DNA of 53,155 nt, from assembly GCA_029858305.1 (NCBI GenBank), contig JAOUFI010000010.1, forward strand, positions 1 to 53,155, given 5' to 3'. The DNA is from Candidatus Thorarchaeota archaeon. GTDB lineage: Archaea > Asgardarchaeota > Thorarchaeia > Thorarchaeales > Thorarchaeaceae. The position numbers were made by a program, and so were the translations under genes. This document shows, piece after piece, positions 6,591 through 41,963 of the stretch. The notes beneath the pieces are model-generated. The model did not search any database, was not told the origin of the DNA, and saw only the letters and a list, made by a program, of their open reading frames with translations. Position 1 is the stretch's first letter; every line of letters begins with the position of its first letter.

Positions 6591-7394
6591 TTGGAACTCT
6601 GGCAGATACTAGTAGCAGTCCTACAGGGCCTCGTTGAATGGCTCCCTATCAGTAGTGAAGGGCAGGTTGTCTTCTTCATCTATAACTTTACATCCATAAG
6701 CCAAGACCAAGTCCTACCCCTTGTGGTATGGCTTCACTTGGGTACAGCGCTCGCGGTGATCGTGCGGTATCCAAGAATTATTCTCGACATCATCTCTCTA
6801 AAGGACAAAAAACTGACACGCCTGTTGTTCATCGCTACAATTGCTACTGCCATCACTGCGATACCTCTGTACATCCTTCTGGAGAACAGCATTGAGATTT
6901 TCCAGGGAGAGATACTTAACGTACTCGTTGGATCCTTGCTCATAGTAACCGCTCTTGCACTCTATCTGCCTAGCCATAAGGACAGCGGGACACAGACTGT
7001 CGAGGTGAAAGAACCGACGGACCGCGAAGCCCTCCTAACTGGGCTGGTTCAAGGTTCGTCCGTCTTACCCGGACTGAGCCGCTCAGGTGTCACAGTATCC
7101 GCGCTCCTCATGCAGAAGATTGACAGGGAAACTGCACTGAGATTTAGTTTTTTGATGAGCGTTCCTGCAGTTCTTGGAATTCTATTATTAAATCTCTTGA
7201 CAGGAAGCGGTATTCCAGCTAGCATGAGTACGCTCGACCTGATAATCGTTGAGGCCATTGTCTTTATCGTGGGTCTTGGCTCCATGGAGTTTCTACTACG
7301 TGTAGCAAGGAGAGTCAATTTCTGGAAGCTCTGCCTTCTCCTTGGACTAGTCGCCATAGTATTCGGAATTCCAGCCTTCTTCGCAATAAGCTAA
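6591..7394 (+). CDS. uppP: Undecaprenyl/polyprenyl-diphosphate phosphatase (BacA family)
   Basis: QGLVEWLPISSEG, LHLGT, PGLSRSG.T and FSFLMSVPA motifs; polytopic; TTG start after GGAAGTGA. Confidence 0.93.
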   Translation: MELWQILVAVLQGLVEWLPISSEGQVVFFIYNFTSISQDQVLPLVVWLHLGTALAVIVRYPRIILDIISLKDKKLTRLLFIATIATAITAIPLYILLENSIEIFQGEILNVLVGSLLIVTALALYLPSHKDSGTQTVEVKEPTDREALLTGLVQGSSVLPGLSRSGVTVSALLMQKIDRETALRFSFLMSVPAVLGILLLNLLTGSGIPASMSTLDLIIVEAIVFIVGLGSMEFLLRVARRVNFWKLCLLLGLVAIVFGIPAFFAIS

Positions 7395-36231: not shown

Positions 36232-36762
36232 ATGTCTTGGGACGACGATCGTGACGACGAAACGAAAAGAAGGATACGGCGCTGGTTTGGCGACTTTATC
36301 CCAGAAGAGATGCTCAGACAGATAGAGGAGATGATGGAGCGAATGATGTCTGAGATGAACCAAGGAACATTCCTGAATCCTGAAACCTTCGAAGAGATGC
36401 TCAGGAGTCAGGAGGGAACAAATCCATTCCTATTTGGATTCTCCATGAATCTCGGCCCAGACGGAAAGCCCATAATACAAAGATTCGGGAATACACCGGG
36501 TTATGAAGGTGAGAGTCATGTACTCGAACCTTTAGTGGATATTGTGGATGAAGACGGTGAAATCATCGTTGTTGCAGAAGTACCAGGAGTAAGCAGGGAC
36601 GAAATCAAGGTTCGAATCAAGGGAACTGAACTGACAATCCATGCAGAGAACCAAGAGAGACCCTATCACAAGGTCATCCAACTCCCCGCAAAAGTAGTGA
36701 AAGAAGAAGCAAAATCAGCAATACGTAACGGTGTGCTGGAAATTCGATTGAAAAAGGCATAA
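36232..36762 (+). CDS. hsp20: Small heat shock protein (archaeal Hsp20)
   Basis: PF.FGFS...GPDGKP.IQRFGN, EPLVD, AEVPGV and NGVLEI alpha-crystallin motifs. Confidence 0.95.
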   Translation: MSWDDDRDDETKRRIRRWFGDFIPEEMLRQIEEMMERMMSEMNQGTFLNPETFEEMLRSQEGTNPFLFGFSMNLGPDGKPIIQRFGNTPGYEGESHVLEPLVDIVDEDGEIIVVAEVPGVSRDEIKVRIKGTELTIHAENQERPYHKVIQLPAKVVKEEAKSAIRNGVLEIRLKKA

Positions 36763-37309: not shown

Positions 37310-38821
37310 ATGCCTAGCACATTTCTCAAAGCTCTATCACCATTTGTCAGGGTAATGCCTGAAGTGAAGGCACCCGACAGAGAGGTCTCTTTTAGAGAGA
37401 AAATCGTTTGGACTGCTATTGTGCTCATTATCTTCCTTATCATGTCACACCTGCCATTGTATGGCGTGGATAGGACAGTAGGGACAGATTATCTATGGGC
37501 AATGCGAGTTATCCTCGCGTCCACAAGAGGCACATTGATGGAGCTGGGAATAGGACCAATAGTCACTGCAGGTCTGGTCATGCAACTCCTATCAGGCTCA
37601 AAGATTATCAATGTGGACTTTGGAGACCCAGAGGACAGAGCCCTATTTACCGGTGGTCAGAAGGTATTAGCCCTGTTCATGACTGGTTTTCAGGCGATCG
37701 CATACATCATGGGTAATGCCTATGGTTCATTAACACCAACTAATGCACTTCTAGTATTTCTTCAACTCTTCATGTCAGGAATCATTGTAATCCTCATGGA
37801 CGAACTTGTTCAGAAGGGCTGGGGTCTCGGATCTGGAGTTTCTCTCTTCATCATGACCAATGTTGCAGGACAGGTCCTCTGGAATATGCTTGACTTTACT
37901 CAAGTAGAGGGTACAGGTCCTGATGGTTATCTCGGTGTCGATGGAACAGCTACAGGACTGCCAAAAGGTGTCATCGCTGCAATTCTCTCAAACATCCTGA
38001 GAGCAATTGGAATCGGCACAACAGCAGGGCCCGCTGTTGATGCTGGATGGCTATTCGTACGAGATGGGTTCACTCCAAGTATCTTCTCACTCATAATTAC
38101 ATTCGTAATCTTTGGGGCGGTCATTTGGATGGAGTCTGTTCGTGTTGAGATACCGTTACAATATGCAAAGTATCGAGGTATGAAAGCACGATATCCAATC
38201 AAACTCCTCTACACTTCGAACATTCCAGTCATTCTAGCACAGGCACTCTATGCAAACATCCTGTTCTTTGGACAGATGATCTGGGGGGCTTTCAATAGTG
38301 AGAATAATAATCCCTTCCTGAATTGGTTAGGTACATTCCATAAGGATGAGGCATCAGGGAGAATGATAGCAGATTCCGGTCTATCACGCTATATCACGCC
38401 GCCACAGGGAATATTCAGTCTGAGCGGGGAACCGGATTGGGCAATCCATGTGTTTGTCTATTTCGCCCTCATGATACTCCTCTGTTGGGGTTTCTCTAAG
38501 GTGTGGGTAGATATCTCAGGTATTGCACCTCGTGATGTCTCGCGCCAGTTGCTCAATTCAGGGTACATGGTCCCTGGATTCAGAACAAGCGAGAAGGTCA
38601 TGGAGAGACTACTTGAGCGCTACATCCCAGTTGTCGCAGGACTCGGTGGATTCCTCATTGGAGTACTCGCAGCCACTGCAGATGTCTTGGGTGCTCTAGC
38701 CAGCGGAACAGGAATATTACTGATGGTTTCGATCATAAAACAATACTACGAACAAATTGCGAAGGCCCAACTATCCGAGATGGGCGGGGAAGGCGTAGCG
38801 GGGCTATTAGGGATTCTGTAA
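37310..38821 (+). CDS. secY: Preprotein translocase subunit SecY / Sec61 alpha
   Basis: GTLMELGIGPIVTAG, DELVQKGWGLGSG.SLFI, YPIKLLYTSNIP, PGFR and GTGILL motifs. Confidence 0.98.
   Translation: MPSTFLKALSPFVRVMPEVKAPDREVSFREKIVWTAIVLIIFLIMSHLPLYGVDRTVGTDYLWAMRVILASTRGTLMELGIGPIVTAGLVMQLLSGSKIINVDFGDPEDRALFTGGQKVLALFMTGFQAIAYIMGNAYGSLTPTNALLVFLQLFMSGIIVILMDELVQKGWGLGSGVSLFIMTNVAGQVLWNMLDFTQVEGTGPDGYLGVDGTATGLPKGVIAAILSNILRAIGIGTTAGPAVDAGWLFVRDGFTPSIFSLIITFVIFGAVIWMESVRVEIPLQYAKYRGMKARYPIKLLYTSNIPVILAQALYANILFFGQMIWGAFNSENNNPFLNWLGTFHKDEASGRMIADSGLSRYITPPQGIFSLSGEPDWAIHVFVYFALMILLCWGFSKVWVDISGIAPRDVSRQLLNSGYMVPGFRTSEKVMERLLERYIPVVAGLGGFLIGVLAATADVLGALASGTGILLMVSIIKQYYEQIAKAQLSEMGGEGVAGLLGIL
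38768..38821 (+). repeat. Direct repeat copy 1: last 18 codons of secY
   Basis: 46/54 nt identical to 39658-39711, with a 26-bp identical core TCCGAGATGGGCGGGGAAGGCGTAGC (38774-38799). Confidence 0.95.
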
Positions 38822-38834
38822 GAAGATTTCACTA

Positions 38835-38877
38835 AAGAGTGGATGGAGATAATACTCCATCCTCACTTTTTTCTTCT
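38835..38877 (+). terminator. Hairpin plus T-tract terminator after secY
   Basis: GGATGGAG-ataata-CTCCATCC followed by TCACTTTTTTCTTC. Confidence 0.6.
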
Positions 38878-38894
38878 CCTTCAAGGTACACACT

Positions 38895-39458
38895 TCAATC
38901 TCTGGTATTTTCTTGCACTTGTTTCCCACGAATGATAGCTAACGATTTTCTAGATGGTAATAATAGAACAAGGCCAAACATGGCAAAGAAGAACAATGGG
39001 TCTTCCAATATTGTTACGATATCTAATAACTTGATGAAAAAAAAAGTTACAAATGAGAGGATTGAACCAATCCATCCAGCAAATTTGAGCTGCTCAATAA
39101 AAACAGGATCATACTCTATCCTTAGCCCCGCGCTCATTCCAAGTTTCAATGATAGCCCTATAAAACTCCTATAAGGGAAATAGGTGAAGGTTGGCCATAG
39201 TAAAAAAATGAGGGTAATTACTCCACTTGCTTCCTGTATATTTATTGTGTCCGTGTGTTGTAAAGCTACAATTCCGAAATTGATTGGAAATGCCCAGAAC
39301 ATCAGATAAAAAATCATCTGAAATAATCTCGGATGGATCATGAAATAAAATGGTTCTTCGTCTTCAAGATAGCCAACGGCATCAAGATGTAATATCAGGA
39401 GCAGCATGAGTGATCCAACAAACAGCACAGTTCCAGTAAATAAGACCTCGAAACCCAT
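38895..39458 (-). CDS. AT-rich orphan polytopic membrane protein
   Basis: About 5 hydrophobic segments, GGAGAGG SD, visibly more AT-rich than the flanks; lies between the two secY 3'-end copies. Confidence 0.7.
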   Translation of the reverse strand: MGFEVLFTGTVLFVGSLMLLLILHLDAVGYLEDEEPFYFMIHPRLFQMIFYLMFWAFPINFGIVALQHTDTINIQEASGVITLIFLLWPTFTYFPYRSFIGLSLKLGMSAGLRIEYDPVFIEQLKFAGWIGSILSFVTFFFIKLLDIVTILEDPLFFFAMFGLVLLLPSRKSLAIIRGKQVQENTRD

Positions 39459-39657
39459 TGTCCTCTCCTAAATCTCTCTAGATGCTAATATTATTTGAAT
39501 TTTTCCAGATTGTCACCAATGAGAAGAGAATCAGGCAATGGATTAGATAAAGTAACATACAAGGCAAGAAAGAACAAAATTAGATGTAAGCAATATAGAT
39601 ACTCAGGTCGCCATACATTTGATTCAGTCTACCTTGGAAGAAGGAAATAGCTAATCT

Positions 39658-39711
39658 CAACTGTCCGAGATGGGCGGGGAAGGCGTAGCAGGTCTGCTAG
39701 GTATCCTGTAG
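39658..39711 (+). repeat. Direct repeat copy 2: orphan secY 3' end (QLSEMGGEGVAGLLGIL*)
   Basis: Encodes the identical peptide to the secY C-terminus; all 8 substitutions are synonymous; no intact reading frame upstream. Confidence 0.95.
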
Positions 39712-39714
39712 AAC

Positions 39715-39754
39715 GAAGAGGGGGTCCAGAGCGACCCCTTTCTTTTCCTTTTTT
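39715..39754 (+). terminator. Hairpin plus T-tract terminator after the orphan secY end
   Basis: GGGGTC-cagagc-GACCCC followed by TTTCTTTTCCTTTTTT. Confidence 0.6.
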
Positions 39755-39819
39755 GATGCACTTCATACCATGGTGTATTTATGGAAGCCTCTGTATATTT
39801 TCACGAGGAGGCTAGAGAA

Positions 39820-40860
39820 TTGCCAACGAGTCTCACAGTAGGTACAGCAACGGCGAAAAGAGGAGAACTCAAGAAGGGTGTCATCAAAGGAATCGAGTTG
39901 AACACAACGACTTCCATTGATATTCCAGTCTTGGTTATGAATGGAGAGAAGGATGGGCCAACACTACTCATGGTGTCGACTCAGCATGGTATTGAGATAC
40001 AGGGGATTGAGGTCATTCTCAAGATAATGAGAGAGCGGGTGAATCCAAAGGGGCTTCGAGGAGCCATTATTGGCATTCCGGTCGAGAATCCACTTGCCTT
40101 CATGCACCACCAGTATCTCTCTTGGATAGACAATCTTGATCTTGGTGGAGGTGGAAGTGCGAGTCCATTAACTGCAGACCAGCCATCTGGAACTGCAACA
40201 GAACGACTAGCTCATGCTTTATGGGAGAAGGCGTGGAGCAAGGCTGACATGGTTATCAATATACACTGTAATGTGAGACCAGACTCGCTCTTCTTCACTG
40301 AGGTCAATATTGGCAATCCATCAACAAAAGAGAGTCTTGAGAGAATGGCAAAGGTGTTTGGTGTAACAAATGTTGTTGAGAATGTCCCCCTCAAAGAGAA
40401 CGCGCCTGATACCCTCTCAAATCTGGCTGTCAAGAATGGTGTCCCTGACATTCTGGTTGAACTCATCGATGGACGTTGGATATCAGAACCCTCGACAACA
40501 GTGGGTGTCAAAGGTGTTCTTAACATAATGAAAGAGTTCAACATGATTGATGGTAAAATCGAACCGCAGAATGGGATAACCATCATACCTGGTGTGTGTA
40601 CAATGCACGGGATTGTCAGAGCAAATAGAGGTGGACTCATTCGATTCAAGAAGGTCCCAGGTGCTTTTCTGAAGAAGGGAGACATTTTTGCAGAGATCTA
40701 CGACCTGTATGGCGATGTCCTTGAACAGGTGAAGAGCCCGGTTGATGGATATATTTGGGCATACCCATGTGGTGACATCTTAGGTACACCAGGTAGTTTA
40801 CAAGCTGTACAAACCGGAGCCAACATTGCATACGCTTTTACTTCGAGTGAGAAGCGGTAG
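39820..40860 (+). CDS. Succinylglutamate desuccinylase/aspartoacylase (M14) family deacylase
   Basis: GPTLL....HGIE..G, NPLAF, INIHC and a C-terminal biotinyl-lipoyl-like hairpin (A..GG...G...KG....I.DLYG); TTG start after GAGGAGG. Confidence 0.88.
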   Translation: MPTSLTVGTATAKRGELKKGVIKGIELNTTTSIDIPVLVMNGEKDGPTLLMVSTQHGIEIQGIEVILKIMRERVNPKGLRGAIIGIPVENPLAFMHHQYLSWIDNLDLGGGGSASPLTADQPSGTATERLAHALWEKAWSKADMVINIHCNVRPDSLFFTEVNIGNPSTKESLERMAKVFGVTNVVENVPLKENAPDTLSNLAVKNGVPDILVELIDGRWISEPSTTVGVKGVLNIMKEFNMIDGKIEPQNGITIIPGVCTMHGIVRANRGGLIRFKKVPGAFLKKGDIFAEIYDLYGDVLEQVKSPVDGYIWAYPCGDILGTPGSLQAVQTGANIAYAFTSSEKR

Positions 40861-40887
40861 TGGGTACGTTCGCATAATGAGATAGAG

Positions 40888-41868
40888 GTGTTCCATGTGG
40901 GGTGGCGTAATCATCTAAATTACGATCCTTTGCCACAGTTTGCAGATGTTGATAATAAAGCCCTTCAATATCAGGTGCGAAGAGACCTTCAGGGATTGAA
41001 TCCAGGCCCAGTCACTTCTCTCTGGGACTTGTATCCTGTGCAAAGAATCCTGAGAAAGCAACAAGAGGATGGCTCTTGGAAGTATCCTAAGAAGAAGACA
41101 GATCCAATCGAAATCTCTGGTTACAAGCAACTTGAAACCTTCAGACAGCTCGGTATACTTGTTGAGAAGTATCTCCTAAATAGAGATCATTCCTCAGTGC
41201 AAAGAGCCGCAGACTTCCTTTTTAATTGTCAGACAGAAGAAGGTGATTTCAGAGGCATCTATCGAAATCAGTACAGTCCAAACTACACTGCTGCCTATCT
41301 TGAGATTCTAATCAAGGCAGGATTTATTGACGAGGAGGCCATAGAACGAGGTCTTCAGTGGTTACTCTCTATTCGCGAAGATGACGGAGGATGGACAGTG
41401 CCTCTTCGTACTGAACATCTGAGGTGGGGAGAGGTAATAAAACTGACAGAACCGGTGCAGCCAAGAAGGGAAAAGCGTTTCTCGCAAATGATCACCGGAG
41501 TAGTTCTACGTCCTTTTGCGGTCCACCCAAGATACAGCCATCAAGCAGATATTTTGCGAGCCGGCGAGAAACTTGCTACCCAAATATTCAAGGCGGATAA
41601 TTACACAGACAGAAAAGCACCTGAATACTGGACTAGAATTACATTCCCATTTTGGTTCAGTGACATCTTATCCGTATTGGATACTCTTTCGAGATTAGGA
41701 TTCTCTGCAGATCATCAGAATATAAGAGAGGCAATAGACTGGTTTGTAAATCAGCAGAAGAGAGATGGAAGCTGGTCGCTATACCTACTTAAAGGAGCAG
41801 GAGATAAGCACCAAAGTCTCTGGGTTGCGCTTGTTATATGTAGAATGCTCAAACGTTTCTTTGGATGA
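40888..41868 (+). CDS. Prenyltransferase/squalene-cyclase-repeat (alpha/alpha barrel) protein
   Basis: QW-type repeats QQEDGSW, CQTEEGDF, REDDGGW and QQKRDGSW; only 326 aa. Confidence 0.75.
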   Translation: MFHVGWRNHLNYDPLPQFADVDNKALQYQVRRDLQGLNPGPVTSLWDLYPVQRILRKQQEDGSWKYPKKKTDPIEISGYKQLETFRQLGILVEKYLLNRDHSSVQRAADFLFNCQTEEGDFRGIYRNQYSPNYTAAYLEILIKAGFIDEEAIERGLQWLLSIREDDGGWTVPLRTEHLRWGEVIKLTEPVQPRREKRFSQMITGVVLRPFAVHPRYSHQADILRAGEKLATQIFKADNYTDRKAPEYWTRITFPFWFSDILSVLDTLSRLGFSADHQNIREAIDWFVNQQKRDGSWSLYLLKGAGDKHQSLWVALVICRMLKRFFG

Positions 41869-41963
41869 TTTGCATCGGTGTCCACTGAAGGTACATGGAA
41901 GGAATTATAACTACCCTCATTCGACCATGCGGTCGAATTCAGAGTCGAAGGTGAGTCCATTCG

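Follow-up and report, generated by a model that had tools for sequence, protein, structure and literature searches.

A displaced secY 3' end beside a one-gene insert in a Thorarchaeota genome

Described cases of gene-end replacement

Replacement of the 3' end of a housekeeping gene by incoming DNA is described for e14 and phage 21 in the icd gene of E. coli; as outlined in PMC13626634, the incoming DNA brings a replacement 3' end and the resident end is left downstream as the icdC pseudogene. The icd and icdC ends differ, according to the same source, mostly by conservative or silent changes, and by recombining with each other they give back one chimeric gene (PMC13626634). The locus described here, at the end of secY in a Candidatus Thorarchaeota archaeon, resembles that outline in its replaced housekeeping 3' end with a downstream fragment. 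It differs in that e14 is presented as a 15-kb prophage with its own SOS-induced site-specific recombination, whereas the secY insert is 0.84 kb long and holds one gene and no recombinase, and six genes of the genome are affected.

Streptococci carry, at the 3' termini of rpmG, rpsI, fda and rplL, CIMEs of 1.2-13 kb that hold cargo and microCIMEs of 130-220 bp that hold no gene; they are characterised in PMC7563491 as deletion derivatives of ICEs and IMEs which keep their att sites and occur in tandem with such elements. As portrayed there, they share with the secY insert a small size, the lack of a recombinase and bounding repeats in the 3' ends of conserved genes; in contrast, no ICE, IME or integrase was recognised in 26 secY-downstream stretches and independent inserts have no shared arms. 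C-terminal displacement has also been described in rhs and T6SS effector-immunity arrays, for which homology-facilitated illegitimate recombination is proposed (PMC5361080). On that description, a conserved upstream part anchors the event, a new 3' end enters together with its neighbour, and the former one is displaced downstream; repeated events give stacked orphaned ends, much as nrdD bears two relics in the present genome. The displaced ends of those arrays are, as described, different toxin domains with a matching immunity gene as cargo, and the protein is changed, whereas at secY the housekeeping protein stays the same or nearly so whichever end is read; the cargo is unrelated, convergent and without a Pfam match, and the genomes are those of Asgard archaea.

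Tn7-like elements of Asgard archaea are reported to use nrdD as attachment site (10.1101/2025.07.27.667033), and nrdD is also a target gene here; unlike those elements, the present loci have no transposase genes, and the duplicated part of the nrdD 3' end is about 75 nt long, more than a short target-site duplication would produce. The text of that paper contains 0 mentions of secY. No paper naming secY as an attachment site was found in a literature search at the level of listings, and PMC8813620 and PMC11529989 showed nothing of this kind under integration-site, attachment, direct-repeat and similar terms.

The two secY ends and the insert between them

The DNA analysed (the window) is a stretch of 53,155 nt, contig JAOUFI010000010.1 of assembly GCA_029858305.1 (G000 below). 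Within it secY (37310-38821, plus strand) is intact and encodes 503 aa, with Pfam matches to SecY (8e-71) and Plug_translocon; compared with secY of the closest relative, G007, it is 96% identical in amino acids and 89.3% in nucleotides. The working 3' end of the gene is a donor-type, incoming end (copy A, 38768-38821, plus strand) consisting of the last 17 codons, which encode QLSEMGGEGVAGLLGIL, and a TAA stop. A second copy (copy B, 39658-39711, plus strand) is untranslated and has an in-frame TAA two codons upstream. The repeat search of the window gave the pair as 53 nt at 87% identity, and an exact 26-nt core (38774-38799, equal to 39664-39689) is present at these two places in the window but in none of 100 shuffles, and has no third copy in the 3.04-Mb assembly.

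The copies differ at eight positions (6, 33, 36, 39, 40, 45, 48 and 54 of 54), all of them silent; A and B encode identical SecY residues, with 0 replacement changes in the 17 codons of copy B. Silent changes make up 45 of the 162 single changes possible in the secY end, which gives P = 3.5e-5 for eight out of eight, and only 2 of 200,000 random sets of eight changes were wholly silent. Since all eight differences are silent, copy B was under selection until recently. An earlier reading of this DNA, made from the letters alone (the sequence-only reading), had described the repeat, its eight silent differences and its 26-nt core just as found here, and had argued that local duplication followed by neutral decay would not give purely silent changes; that course is excluded. 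The weaker similarity which it saw for about 15 nt upstream of copy B is present but only marginal, as equal scores are reached by 179 of 5000 shuffles and, among 800 24-mers drawn from the insert, by 13 (p ~0.02-0.04).

Between the copies lies an insert of 836 nt with 36.6% GC (38822-39657), in agreement with the "about 840 bp" of AT-rich DNA reported earlier; GC drops from 45-49% to 37% across 38820-39650. Each copy is followed by its own hairpin and T-run, and in the terminator scan the two, at 38841-38862 and 39718-39741, differ from each other, again as the earlier reading had it. The one after copy A (38841-38872, plus strand) has a related hairpin after secY in G003, and its minus strand is also hairpin-like, behind the cargo gene; the one after copy B (39718-39751, plus strand) matches the hairpin after secY in G007 and is the original secY terminator, now behind the relic. 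Terminator-like sites number 5 in this 1.3 kb, compared with 0.9 expected.

The only ORF between the copies is the cargo gene (38895-39458, minus strand), which is convergent with secY and encodes 187 aa without a Pfam match. It codes for a membrane protein that is all-helical and whose small family is confined to this archaeal family. The AF2 model (pLDDT 76) has 8 DSSP helical segments and no fold match in the PDB (1 match, E = 6.3). Two related proteins were found by word-index search and 13 clusters by HMMER (E<=1e-3, 1.84 billion representatives); the insert holds a single membrane gene, as had been stated, but this gene is not a strict orphan. The protein is 66% identical to that encoded by the neighbour of secY in G003, and members of the family occur in 9 of 400 genomes of the phylum searched with the cargo alignment. 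A distant homolog follows a TFB gene, away from secY, in G014, G020, G021 and G024, and the G019 homolog (a short locus) lies on another contig than secY, with the same downstream neighbours (HAD-like and CPBP-type ORFs). Upstream of the cargo gene, 39459-39511 (minus strand) is alignable with G003 and is probably the promoter; the colinear alignment of G000 and G003 stops at 39511. The remaining 146 nt (39512-39657) are unique to the insert, with no other copy in the genome, and their last ~20 nt weakly resemble secY codons -24 to -19.

A transposon or IS with target-site duplication was considered and rejected: the repeat search found no inverted repeats at the insert ends, and the copies differ at 8 of 54 positions though the flank is 99.6% identical to the empty allele.

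The layout could also be an artefact, either a chimera assembled from two strains or a tandem duplication made locally, with neutral decay. The assembly is indeed a binned metagenome of 205 contigs with 2.8% contamination, and several strains co-occur in the compared runs. Against this, an independent contig of the probable source run (2210 nt, 38257-40466) spans both copies and the cargo with 1 mismatch and a flat depth of 13, and because of this contig the locus is not taken to be an assembly artefact. The shared core of 26 nt is also shorter than the word length of the run index, 31; Logan contigs are presumably assembled with 31-mers, so that the core could not have fused the copies. Furthermore, the flanks of A and B differ and are each orthologous to a different genome, all A/B differences are silent and the same layout is found in assemblies of other species. 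It is therefore extremely unlikely that the locus is an artefact, including the chimera which the sequence-only reading had itself raised as an objection.

The empty allele and the source of each end

In G007 secY is followed by AstE-like, SQHop-like and adk genes, with no cargo and no duplicate. The first resident gene after the site in the window, an AstE/AspA-like gene of 359 aa (39781-40860, plus strand; Pfam PF24827), is the one directly 3' of secY in G007, G001 and G013. Copy B and its flank (39658-39830) align with the native end of G007 at 87% over 174 nt, hairpin included; judged from this orthology, copy B is the ancestral secY end, displaced. Copy A, by contrast, runs on into a terminator and gene colinear with G003 and not with G007 (38711-39511, 77% over 803 nt), and in G003 the cargo homolog adjoins secY.

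The empty allele is also found within the same species, in metagenomic runs of two studies other than the source study. In these runs (X2, X3 and X4) 38810-39617 is uncovered, and in X3 and X4 copy B is the live end of secY, the evidence being single contigs (depth 2.6 and 4.2) and not raw reads. The X3 contig matches 39661-39895 with 1 mismatch in 235 nt and the 18 letters before this read QIAKAQ in frame; that of X4 matches 39664-39937 with 2 mismatches in 274 nt, and the preceding letters read AQL. The insert is absent from both contigs, as from G007; the right junction lies at 39657-39661, the fit of the X3 contig starting at 39661 and that of the X4 contig at 39664. Deleting the insert from the filled allele of G000 would not yield the empty allele, because 5 of the 18 letters before the match in X3 differ from the sequence before copy A. 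X3 may not be the exact recipient lineage.

These comparisons establish both the direction of the event and its recency. They also bear out the view of the sequence-only reading that the ends evolved as working secY termini in different lineages, B being of the G007 type and A colinear with G003, and that incoming DNA supplied a new C-terminus and terminator, given the empty site in G007 and the contigs that read from secY into B. In the comparison with empty-site relatives that this reading had suggested, it is copy B and not copy A which agrees with G007 and X3/X4; nor do relatives carry both copies invariantly, the other objection foreseen, since G007, X3 and X4 are empty. Our best reading is a recent, strain-level gain of a gene at secY, with DNA from a related Thorarchaeota lineage.

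A much older origin would have the module ancestral to G003, G000, G007, G001 and G013, with precise loss by A/B recombination from G007, from G001/G013 and from the strains of X3 and X4. This would be consistent with the cargo adjoining secY in both G000 and G003, and with a module divergence (77% nt identity) equal to the secY divergence of the two genomes (77.1%). It is nevertheless very unlikely: a relic so old should have decayed, yet copy B has no replacement change in 17 codons and G003 has no detectable relic between cargo and next gene, where local alignment scores are within the shuffle range; the empty allele left of the core is not of the copy-A type, and at least 3 independent precise losses are needed. 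On the tree (G003,((G000,G007),(G001,G013))) vertical inheritance of the module is unparsimonious.

Recombinases were sought at several levels. The insert (38822-39657) contains none, and neither PF00589 nor PF00239 (tyrosine and serine recombinases) has a match in the G000 assembly (88.9% complete, binned), which agrees with the lack of an integrase noted before; a recombinase may lie on an unbinned element. Of 28 genomes examined in the genus, only 8 have PF00589, G016 and G023 among them, and no recombinase, ICE or IME was recognised in the 26 secY-downstream stretches, for which six query proteins and the ORF lists were checked. Duplicated secY ends are also present in G016 (insert of 216 nt) and G023. 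The left edges are at -54 in G000, -51 in G016 and about -66 or more in G023, the three inserts share at most 11 nt, and nothing beyond 9-11 nt is common to the ends of these inserts and that at nrdD. An apparent second secY end in G019 is really the overlap of two contig ends, with no duplicate. Searched as a degenerate DNA pattern for SEMGGEGVAGLLGIL, the secY end was found on 0 viral contigs and on 1 JGI metagenome contig, L061; this comes from another lineage and has one end only, native in type, with an NTPase gene after it.

The insert might be a reduced, non-autonomous CIME-like element moved in trans, with attB in the secY 3' end, the 26-nt core as crossover and the replacement end carried as by e14 in icd. 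Direct repeats at a gene 3' end, a working end supplied by the element and an exact core that can be read as an att core are all consistent with this, as are the tyrosine recombinases elsewhere in the genus and the sizes given for streptococcal CIMEs and microCIMEs in PMC7563491, which are similar to those of the G000 and G016 inserts. However, such an element predicts that copy A left of the core should be host-type, whereas 5 of 18 positions, besides CTA/CTG, are unlike the empty allele of X3, a strain that may not be the exact recipient lineage. The want of a recombinase in the interval, the downstream stretches and the assembly, the lack of shared arms among the secY inserts of three genomes, their differing left edges, the absence of the site from viral contigs and the six specificities that six target genes would need also tell against an element of this kind, which we consider unlikely.

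Recurrence at other genes and a proposed mechanism

The layout recurs in the same genome and so looks like a general route of gene acquisition. A scan of G000 with the last 24 residues of each of 1822 ORFs of at least 200 aa (threshold 12 identical residues in 24) found a 3'-end relic within 6 kb downstream at 6 genes: secY, nrdD (two stacked relics), actin, an etfA-like gene, the 2-oxoacid oxidoreductase beta subunit and a solute-binding protein. On the reverse strand, used as control, all scores stayed below 11, and the upstream control gave 9 matches, 8 of them tandem paralogs and 1 low-complexity; no clear 5'-end relics were found in G000. All 7 gaps (7/7) hold one ORF convergent with the target, the relic edges lie between -48 and -125, the insert edges are abrupt and the longest exact runs at the other five loci, read by eye, are ~15-26 nt. 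One relic only follows secY in the window, while nrdD has two in G000 and one or two in G003, G001 and G023. At the locus labelled C5, ARAGORN gave no tRNA and Rfam an intron-containing tRNA.

Relatives show that the displaced-end layout is polymorphic between species and even strains. At the 2-oxoacid oxidoreductase beta locus the site is empty in G007, whose native end, KKRCGVE, is identical to the G000 relic, while the working end of G000, KKKCGVD, is that of G023, which has a cargo homolog there (37% identical). Different species share the same pairs of cargo and target, the membrane gene lying by secY (G000 and G003), cargo330 by korB (G000 and G023) and cargo183 by actin (G000 and G007). 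A retro-copy (RNA-mediated) origin, prompted by the cargo 3' end always facing the target, was set aside; PF00078 (RVT_1, reverse transcriptase) has no match in the G000 assembly and homology to G003 extends 53 nt upstream of the cargo start codon.

The idea of a secY-targeting integration or cassette system, put forward in the sequence-only reading, is not supported: the same layout is present at five other unrelated genes, the inserts and left edges of G016 and G023 differ, the proposed search for carriers gave no viral contig, and the assembly has no match to PF00589, PF00239 or PF00078. Of the three options that it left, homology-anchored capture fits best and a reduced element mobilised in trans is weakened.

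We propose that the insert probably arose by homology-anchored "terminal displacement", a homologous crossover in the conserved gene combined with a far join by short homology or illegitimate recombination. The 187-aa membrane gene would already have stood tail-to-tail with secY in a related Thorarchaeota lineage. The conserved body of secY would have served as anchor, by homologous recombination, and the donor secY end, terminator and convergent gene with its upstream region would have entered as one piece, the promoter-side end being rejoined at about codon -17 of the resident secY with very short homology or illegitimately. secY would then be translated through copy A, its protein unchanged, and the resident 17 codons and terminator (copy B) would be shifted 890 nt downstream as an unused relic. 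We infer that host homologous recombination and not a site-specific recombinase was at work, and likewise how the right-hand join was made. Compared with G007, secY shows no recombination breakpoint within it; the last 29 codons are 86% identical compared with 89.3% overall, and a 40-codon identity scan against G007, G003 and others showed no clear switch. The nearest sampled module, that of G003, is only 77% identical, too distant for a comparison at the right-hand join.

The narrow range of relic lengths (48-125 nt) may reflect survivorship, as longer direct repeats would recombine the insert out, and shorter relics would escape the threshold of the scan. Simple capture does not predict these lengths or the convergence of all 7 cargo ORFs, and a more specific mechanism may be involved. 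A rival explanation is homing without a recombinase: recombination between A and B would free a circle of one repeat and the gene, and a single crossover in the same gene end of a naive genome would rebuild the order A, cargo, B. This would account for the fixed association of cargo and target across species, the abrupt edges and the missing recombinases, and the faint resemblance to secY left of B could stem from an old part of the repeat, never refreshed. But if a single crossover took place in the 54 nt, the sequence to its left should be host-type in A and donor-type in B. Position 6, which is CTA in A but CTG both in B and in the empty allele, does not agree with this, nor do the upstream 18 nt, unless the crossover fell in the first 5 nt. 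The circular junction is, moreover, not among the contigs of the source run, X1, where it was sought at contig level, and the orientation rule is left unexplained. We regard such homing as improbable, somewhat more so than the element moved in trans.

Terminal displacement could also be the work of recombinase-free, rule-governed cassettes, each a single transcription unit with the last 50-125 nt of an abutting conserved gene, its 3' end facing that gene; they would insert at the same gene in new genomes and take over its working end, so that old ends are stacked. We hold this only tentatively. Were it true, terminal-displacement cassettes would be homing elements that use host recombination only, and a cassette would be locked in once the old end decays, since an essential gene (secY, nrdD, actin) would owe its end to it. 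Should the orientation rule and the narrow range of relic lengths prove true of many genomes, they would point to a specific integrase-free recombination mechanism.

For annotation, it follows that short relics of essential-gene ends should not be taken as att sites of mobile elements without further evidence. Each displaced end marks one insertion, gives its direction and preserves the former sequence of the recipient. A displaced gene end is thus a datable footprint of the entry of an accessory or orphan gene into Asgard genomes, in a lineage that is central to ideas on the origin of eukaryotes.

A displaced secY end and an incoming copy

The secY gene of the window (37310-38821, + strand; 503 aa; Pfam SecY, 8e-71) ends in a sequence that is present twice; its final 17 codons and stop (38768-38821, copy A) are repeated at 39658-39711 (copy B). 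The repeat search scored this pair as 53 nt at 87% identity, with an exact core of 26 nt that is found at two places in the window and in 0 of 100 shuffles; no third copy was found when the 3.04-Mb assembly was searched with the secY end. The copies differ at 8 positions, each time silently. Of the 162 single changes possible, 45 would be silent, which gives P = 3.5e-5 for this outcome; it was seen in 2 of 200,000 random 8-change sets. The terminator scan places a separate hairpin and T-run behind each copy (38841-38862 for A, 39718-39741 for B). All of this agrees with the sequence-only reading, which had also reported weak similarity upstream; that similarity exists to the left of copy B but is marginal, an equal score being reached by 179 of 5000 shuffles.

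Between the copies GC falls to 37% and a minus-strand gene of 187 aa (38895-39458), the cargo, has no Pfam match. A word-indexed protein search with it returned only itself and a protein of G003, a genome of the same genus, annotated as a hypothetical protein of a Thorarchaeota MAG. HMMER gave 13 clusters at E<=1e-3, and family members were found in 9/400 genomes of the phylum, all within this archaeal family. Distant homologs (23-28% identity) are carried by five genomes on a contig other than that of secY; in G014, G020, G021 and G024 such a homolog follows a TFB gene, not secY. The AF2 model is all-helical (pLDDT 76) and a PDB fold search with it gave no match; we read the cargo as a predicted integral membrane protein.

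The origin of each copy was addressed by comparing 26 secY-downstream stretches, from the genome holding the window (G000) and 24 others (G019 in two contig pieces) of the 28 species genomes of the genus. The closest relative, G007 (SecY 96% identical in amino acids, 89.3% in nucleotides), has the order secY, AstE-like gene, SQHop-like gene, adk, with neither the cargo nor a duplicate end downstream of secY. Copy B and its flank (39658-39830) align with the native secY end and flank of G007 at 87% over 174 nt; the alignment begins precisely at 39658, and the hairpin of copy B corresponds to that of G007, whose site is empty. Window 38711-39511 is colinear with G003 instead (77% over 803 nt), a span that takes in copy A with its hairpin as well as the cargo gene with 53 nt of its upstream region; in G003 a gene 66% identical to the cargo directly follows secY. 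Copy B is the old resident secY end and copy A the incoming one. Furthermore, a quick tree of SecY, adk and EMC3, which represents three flanking genes of the locus rather than the whole genome, gave (G003,((G000,G007),(G001,G013))) with supports of 95, 100, 92 and 100, a topology on which the module is not simply inherited.

The sequence-only reading had named chimeric assembly as a possible refutation and an empty-site junction as something to be sought; contigs of sequencing runs bear on both. A single contig from the probable source run (X1; depth 13) crosses 38257-40466 with 1 mismatch, which rules out a binning or scaffolding artefact. Three runs from two other studies (X2-X4) have contigs on secY and to the right of 39661, with zero cover on 38810-39617. 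The X3 contig matches 39661-39895 with 1 mismatch in 235, and the 18 letters before the match translate as QIAKAQ, in frame with copy B; that of X4 matches 39664-39937 with 2 mismatches in 274, preceded by letters translating as AQL. There is therefore an empty-site allele with copy B as its working secY end, the evidence being single contigs of low depth (2.6 and 4.2), not raw reads. Its flanks are >99% identical to G000, as against 87% for G007, and so belong to the same species; since the 18 letters of X3 differ at 5 positions from the sequence preceding copy A, this allele did not arise from the filled one by deletion. Even with such low-depth contigs, the insertion at secY is recent and polymorphic.

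Variation at secY across the genus

What lies between secY and adk differs among the genomes of the genus: secY directly abuts adk in 8 genomes, 5 carry ORFs of 650-740 aa there (the one scanned is M1-peptidase-like), and G024 has a metallo-beta-lactamase-fold gene. The interval (window 38822-41960 and its counterparts) is a hotspot whose contents range from nothing to AstE-like/SQHop-like and other genes; a JGI contig has an NTPase gene in it.

Displaced secY ends were also seen in G016, with a 216-nt insert and no ORF, and in G023, where a convergent ORF of 193 aa separates the copies. Since these relics carry replacement changes, they are older; their flanks are similar to native ends in sister genomes, and the inserts have <=11 nt in common with that of G000.

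A mirror image occurs at the secY 5' end in G002 (C3:149600-153600), where a 28-codon secY-start relic after the L15 gene is followed by two codirectional ORFs (208 and 176 aa, with signal-peptide-like starts) and then intact secY; no clear 5'-end relics were found in G000. Separately, a 176-aa ORF at window 36232-36762 lies between two ORFs that, by eye, are putative ribosomal proteins L30 and L15. Also by eye, it resembles a small heat-shock (alpha-crystallin) protein; in G002 a homolog of it (76% identity) is found immediately before the L15 gene.

Displaced ends at other genes

The last 24 residues of 1822 mechanically called ORFs of at least 200 aa in G000 were searched against the 6 kb downstream of each, a relic being a short open frame with its stop at the same place as that of the target gene. 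Twelve matches had at least 12/24 identical residues, 6 of them tandem paralogs and 6 relics. On the reverse strand of these 6 kb no score reached 11, and the 6 kb upstream gave 9 matches (8 paralogs and 1 low-complexity). By Pfam the relic-bearing genes are secY, nrdD, Fer4+ETF-alpha, actin, TPP-binding 2-oxoacid oxidoreductase beta and SBP_bac_5. Left edges of the relics are abrupt (-54, -75, -125, -48, -50 and -95). On the right the relics end with the stop codon, and that of actin alone extends ~30 nt into the terminator. Every gap contains a single ORF of at least 80 aa without an overlapping opposite-strand ORF, and it is convergent with the target in 7/7 gaps. These cargo ORFs encode 187, 447, 274, 470, 183, 330 and 510 aa, and Pfam matches were obtained for just two of them, the 274-aa (luciferase-like) and 510-aa (TPR) products.

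At nrdD (713 aa; C129:17361-21850) two displacement events are stacked: nrdD is followed by the convergent 447-aa cargo, relic 1 (24 codons, 22/24 residues identical), the convergent luciferase-like gene and a more decayed relic 2. The order in G003 is nrdD, luciferase-like gene, relic, with the luciferase-like gene 12 nt from the nrdD end, as against 13 nt behind relic 1 in G000. One or two nrdD-end relics are present in G003, G001 and G023. At actin (C185:53677-55633; Pfam Actin, 5e-133) a relic of the last ~16 codons with the terminator hairpin lies 662 nt downstream, beyond a convergent 183-aa ORF; G007 has a second actin copy with a relic ~900 nt behind it, and beyond the relic comes a homolog of this cargo (71% identity). 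Convergent ORFs of 470 and 510 (TPR) aa accompany relics of ~125 nt at Fer4+ETF-alpha (C88:6403-9366) and ~95 nt at SBP_bac_5 (C32:12556-16198). At oxidoreductase beta (C31:13764-15858; relic ~50 nt, 330-aa ORF) the G007 site is empty, with a native end (KKRCGVE) of the G000 relic type; the working end in G000, KKKCGVD, is of the type of G023, which carries a 37%-identical homolog of the G000 cargo at this place. With the same layout at five other genes and unrelated inserts at secY in G016 and G023, the secY-specific integration system proposed from sequence alone is not supported.

Elsewhere in G000, a methyltransferase ORF of 236 aa lies between the two copies of a 218-nt direct repeat (C5:5771-5988 and 6847-7064; 98.6% identity). 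The repeat contains the final ~186 nt of a 178-aa ORF; on its opposite strand it takes in ~25 nt from the 3' end of a tRNA gene with an intron (C5:7040-7144), which Rfam detected and ARAGORN did not.

Recombinases and a possible mechanism

Searches for Phage_integrase, Resolvase and RVT_1 gave zero matches in the G000 assembly (88.9% complete). Phage_integrase-family matches were obtained in 8/28 genus genomes and not in G000, G007, G001 or G013; the same search was positive in 14/14 control genomes. A core Xer-type recombinase may be missing from the genus, or it may be too divergent to detect or unbinned. It is possible that the secY insert had a CIME-like origin, comparable to elements described in PMC7563491, but no integrase was found, the inserts share no arms and the left half of copy A, judged against the X3 contig, is not host-type.

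More probably, the body of the conserved gene served as the homologous anchor, the far end being joined where pairing stopped or close by. This resembles the homology-facilitated illegitimate recombination that PMC5361080 proposes as the route of C-terminal displacement at rhs and T6SS loci. The short relics may be survivors, longer repeats recombining the insert out by analogy with icd/icdC, where recombination between repeats removes e14 (PMC13626634). Such a homology anchor leaves the all-convergent orientation and narrow relic lengths unexplained; speculatively, the gene-less 216-nt insert of G016 would fit a piece ending at the first promoter region met.

The comparison with G007 and G003, together with the empty-allele contigs, upholds the earlier inference that secY received a new C-terminus and terminator: incoming DNA brought a secY end, its terminator and a convergent gene and displaced the resident end, and this layout recurs at unrelated genes and stacks.
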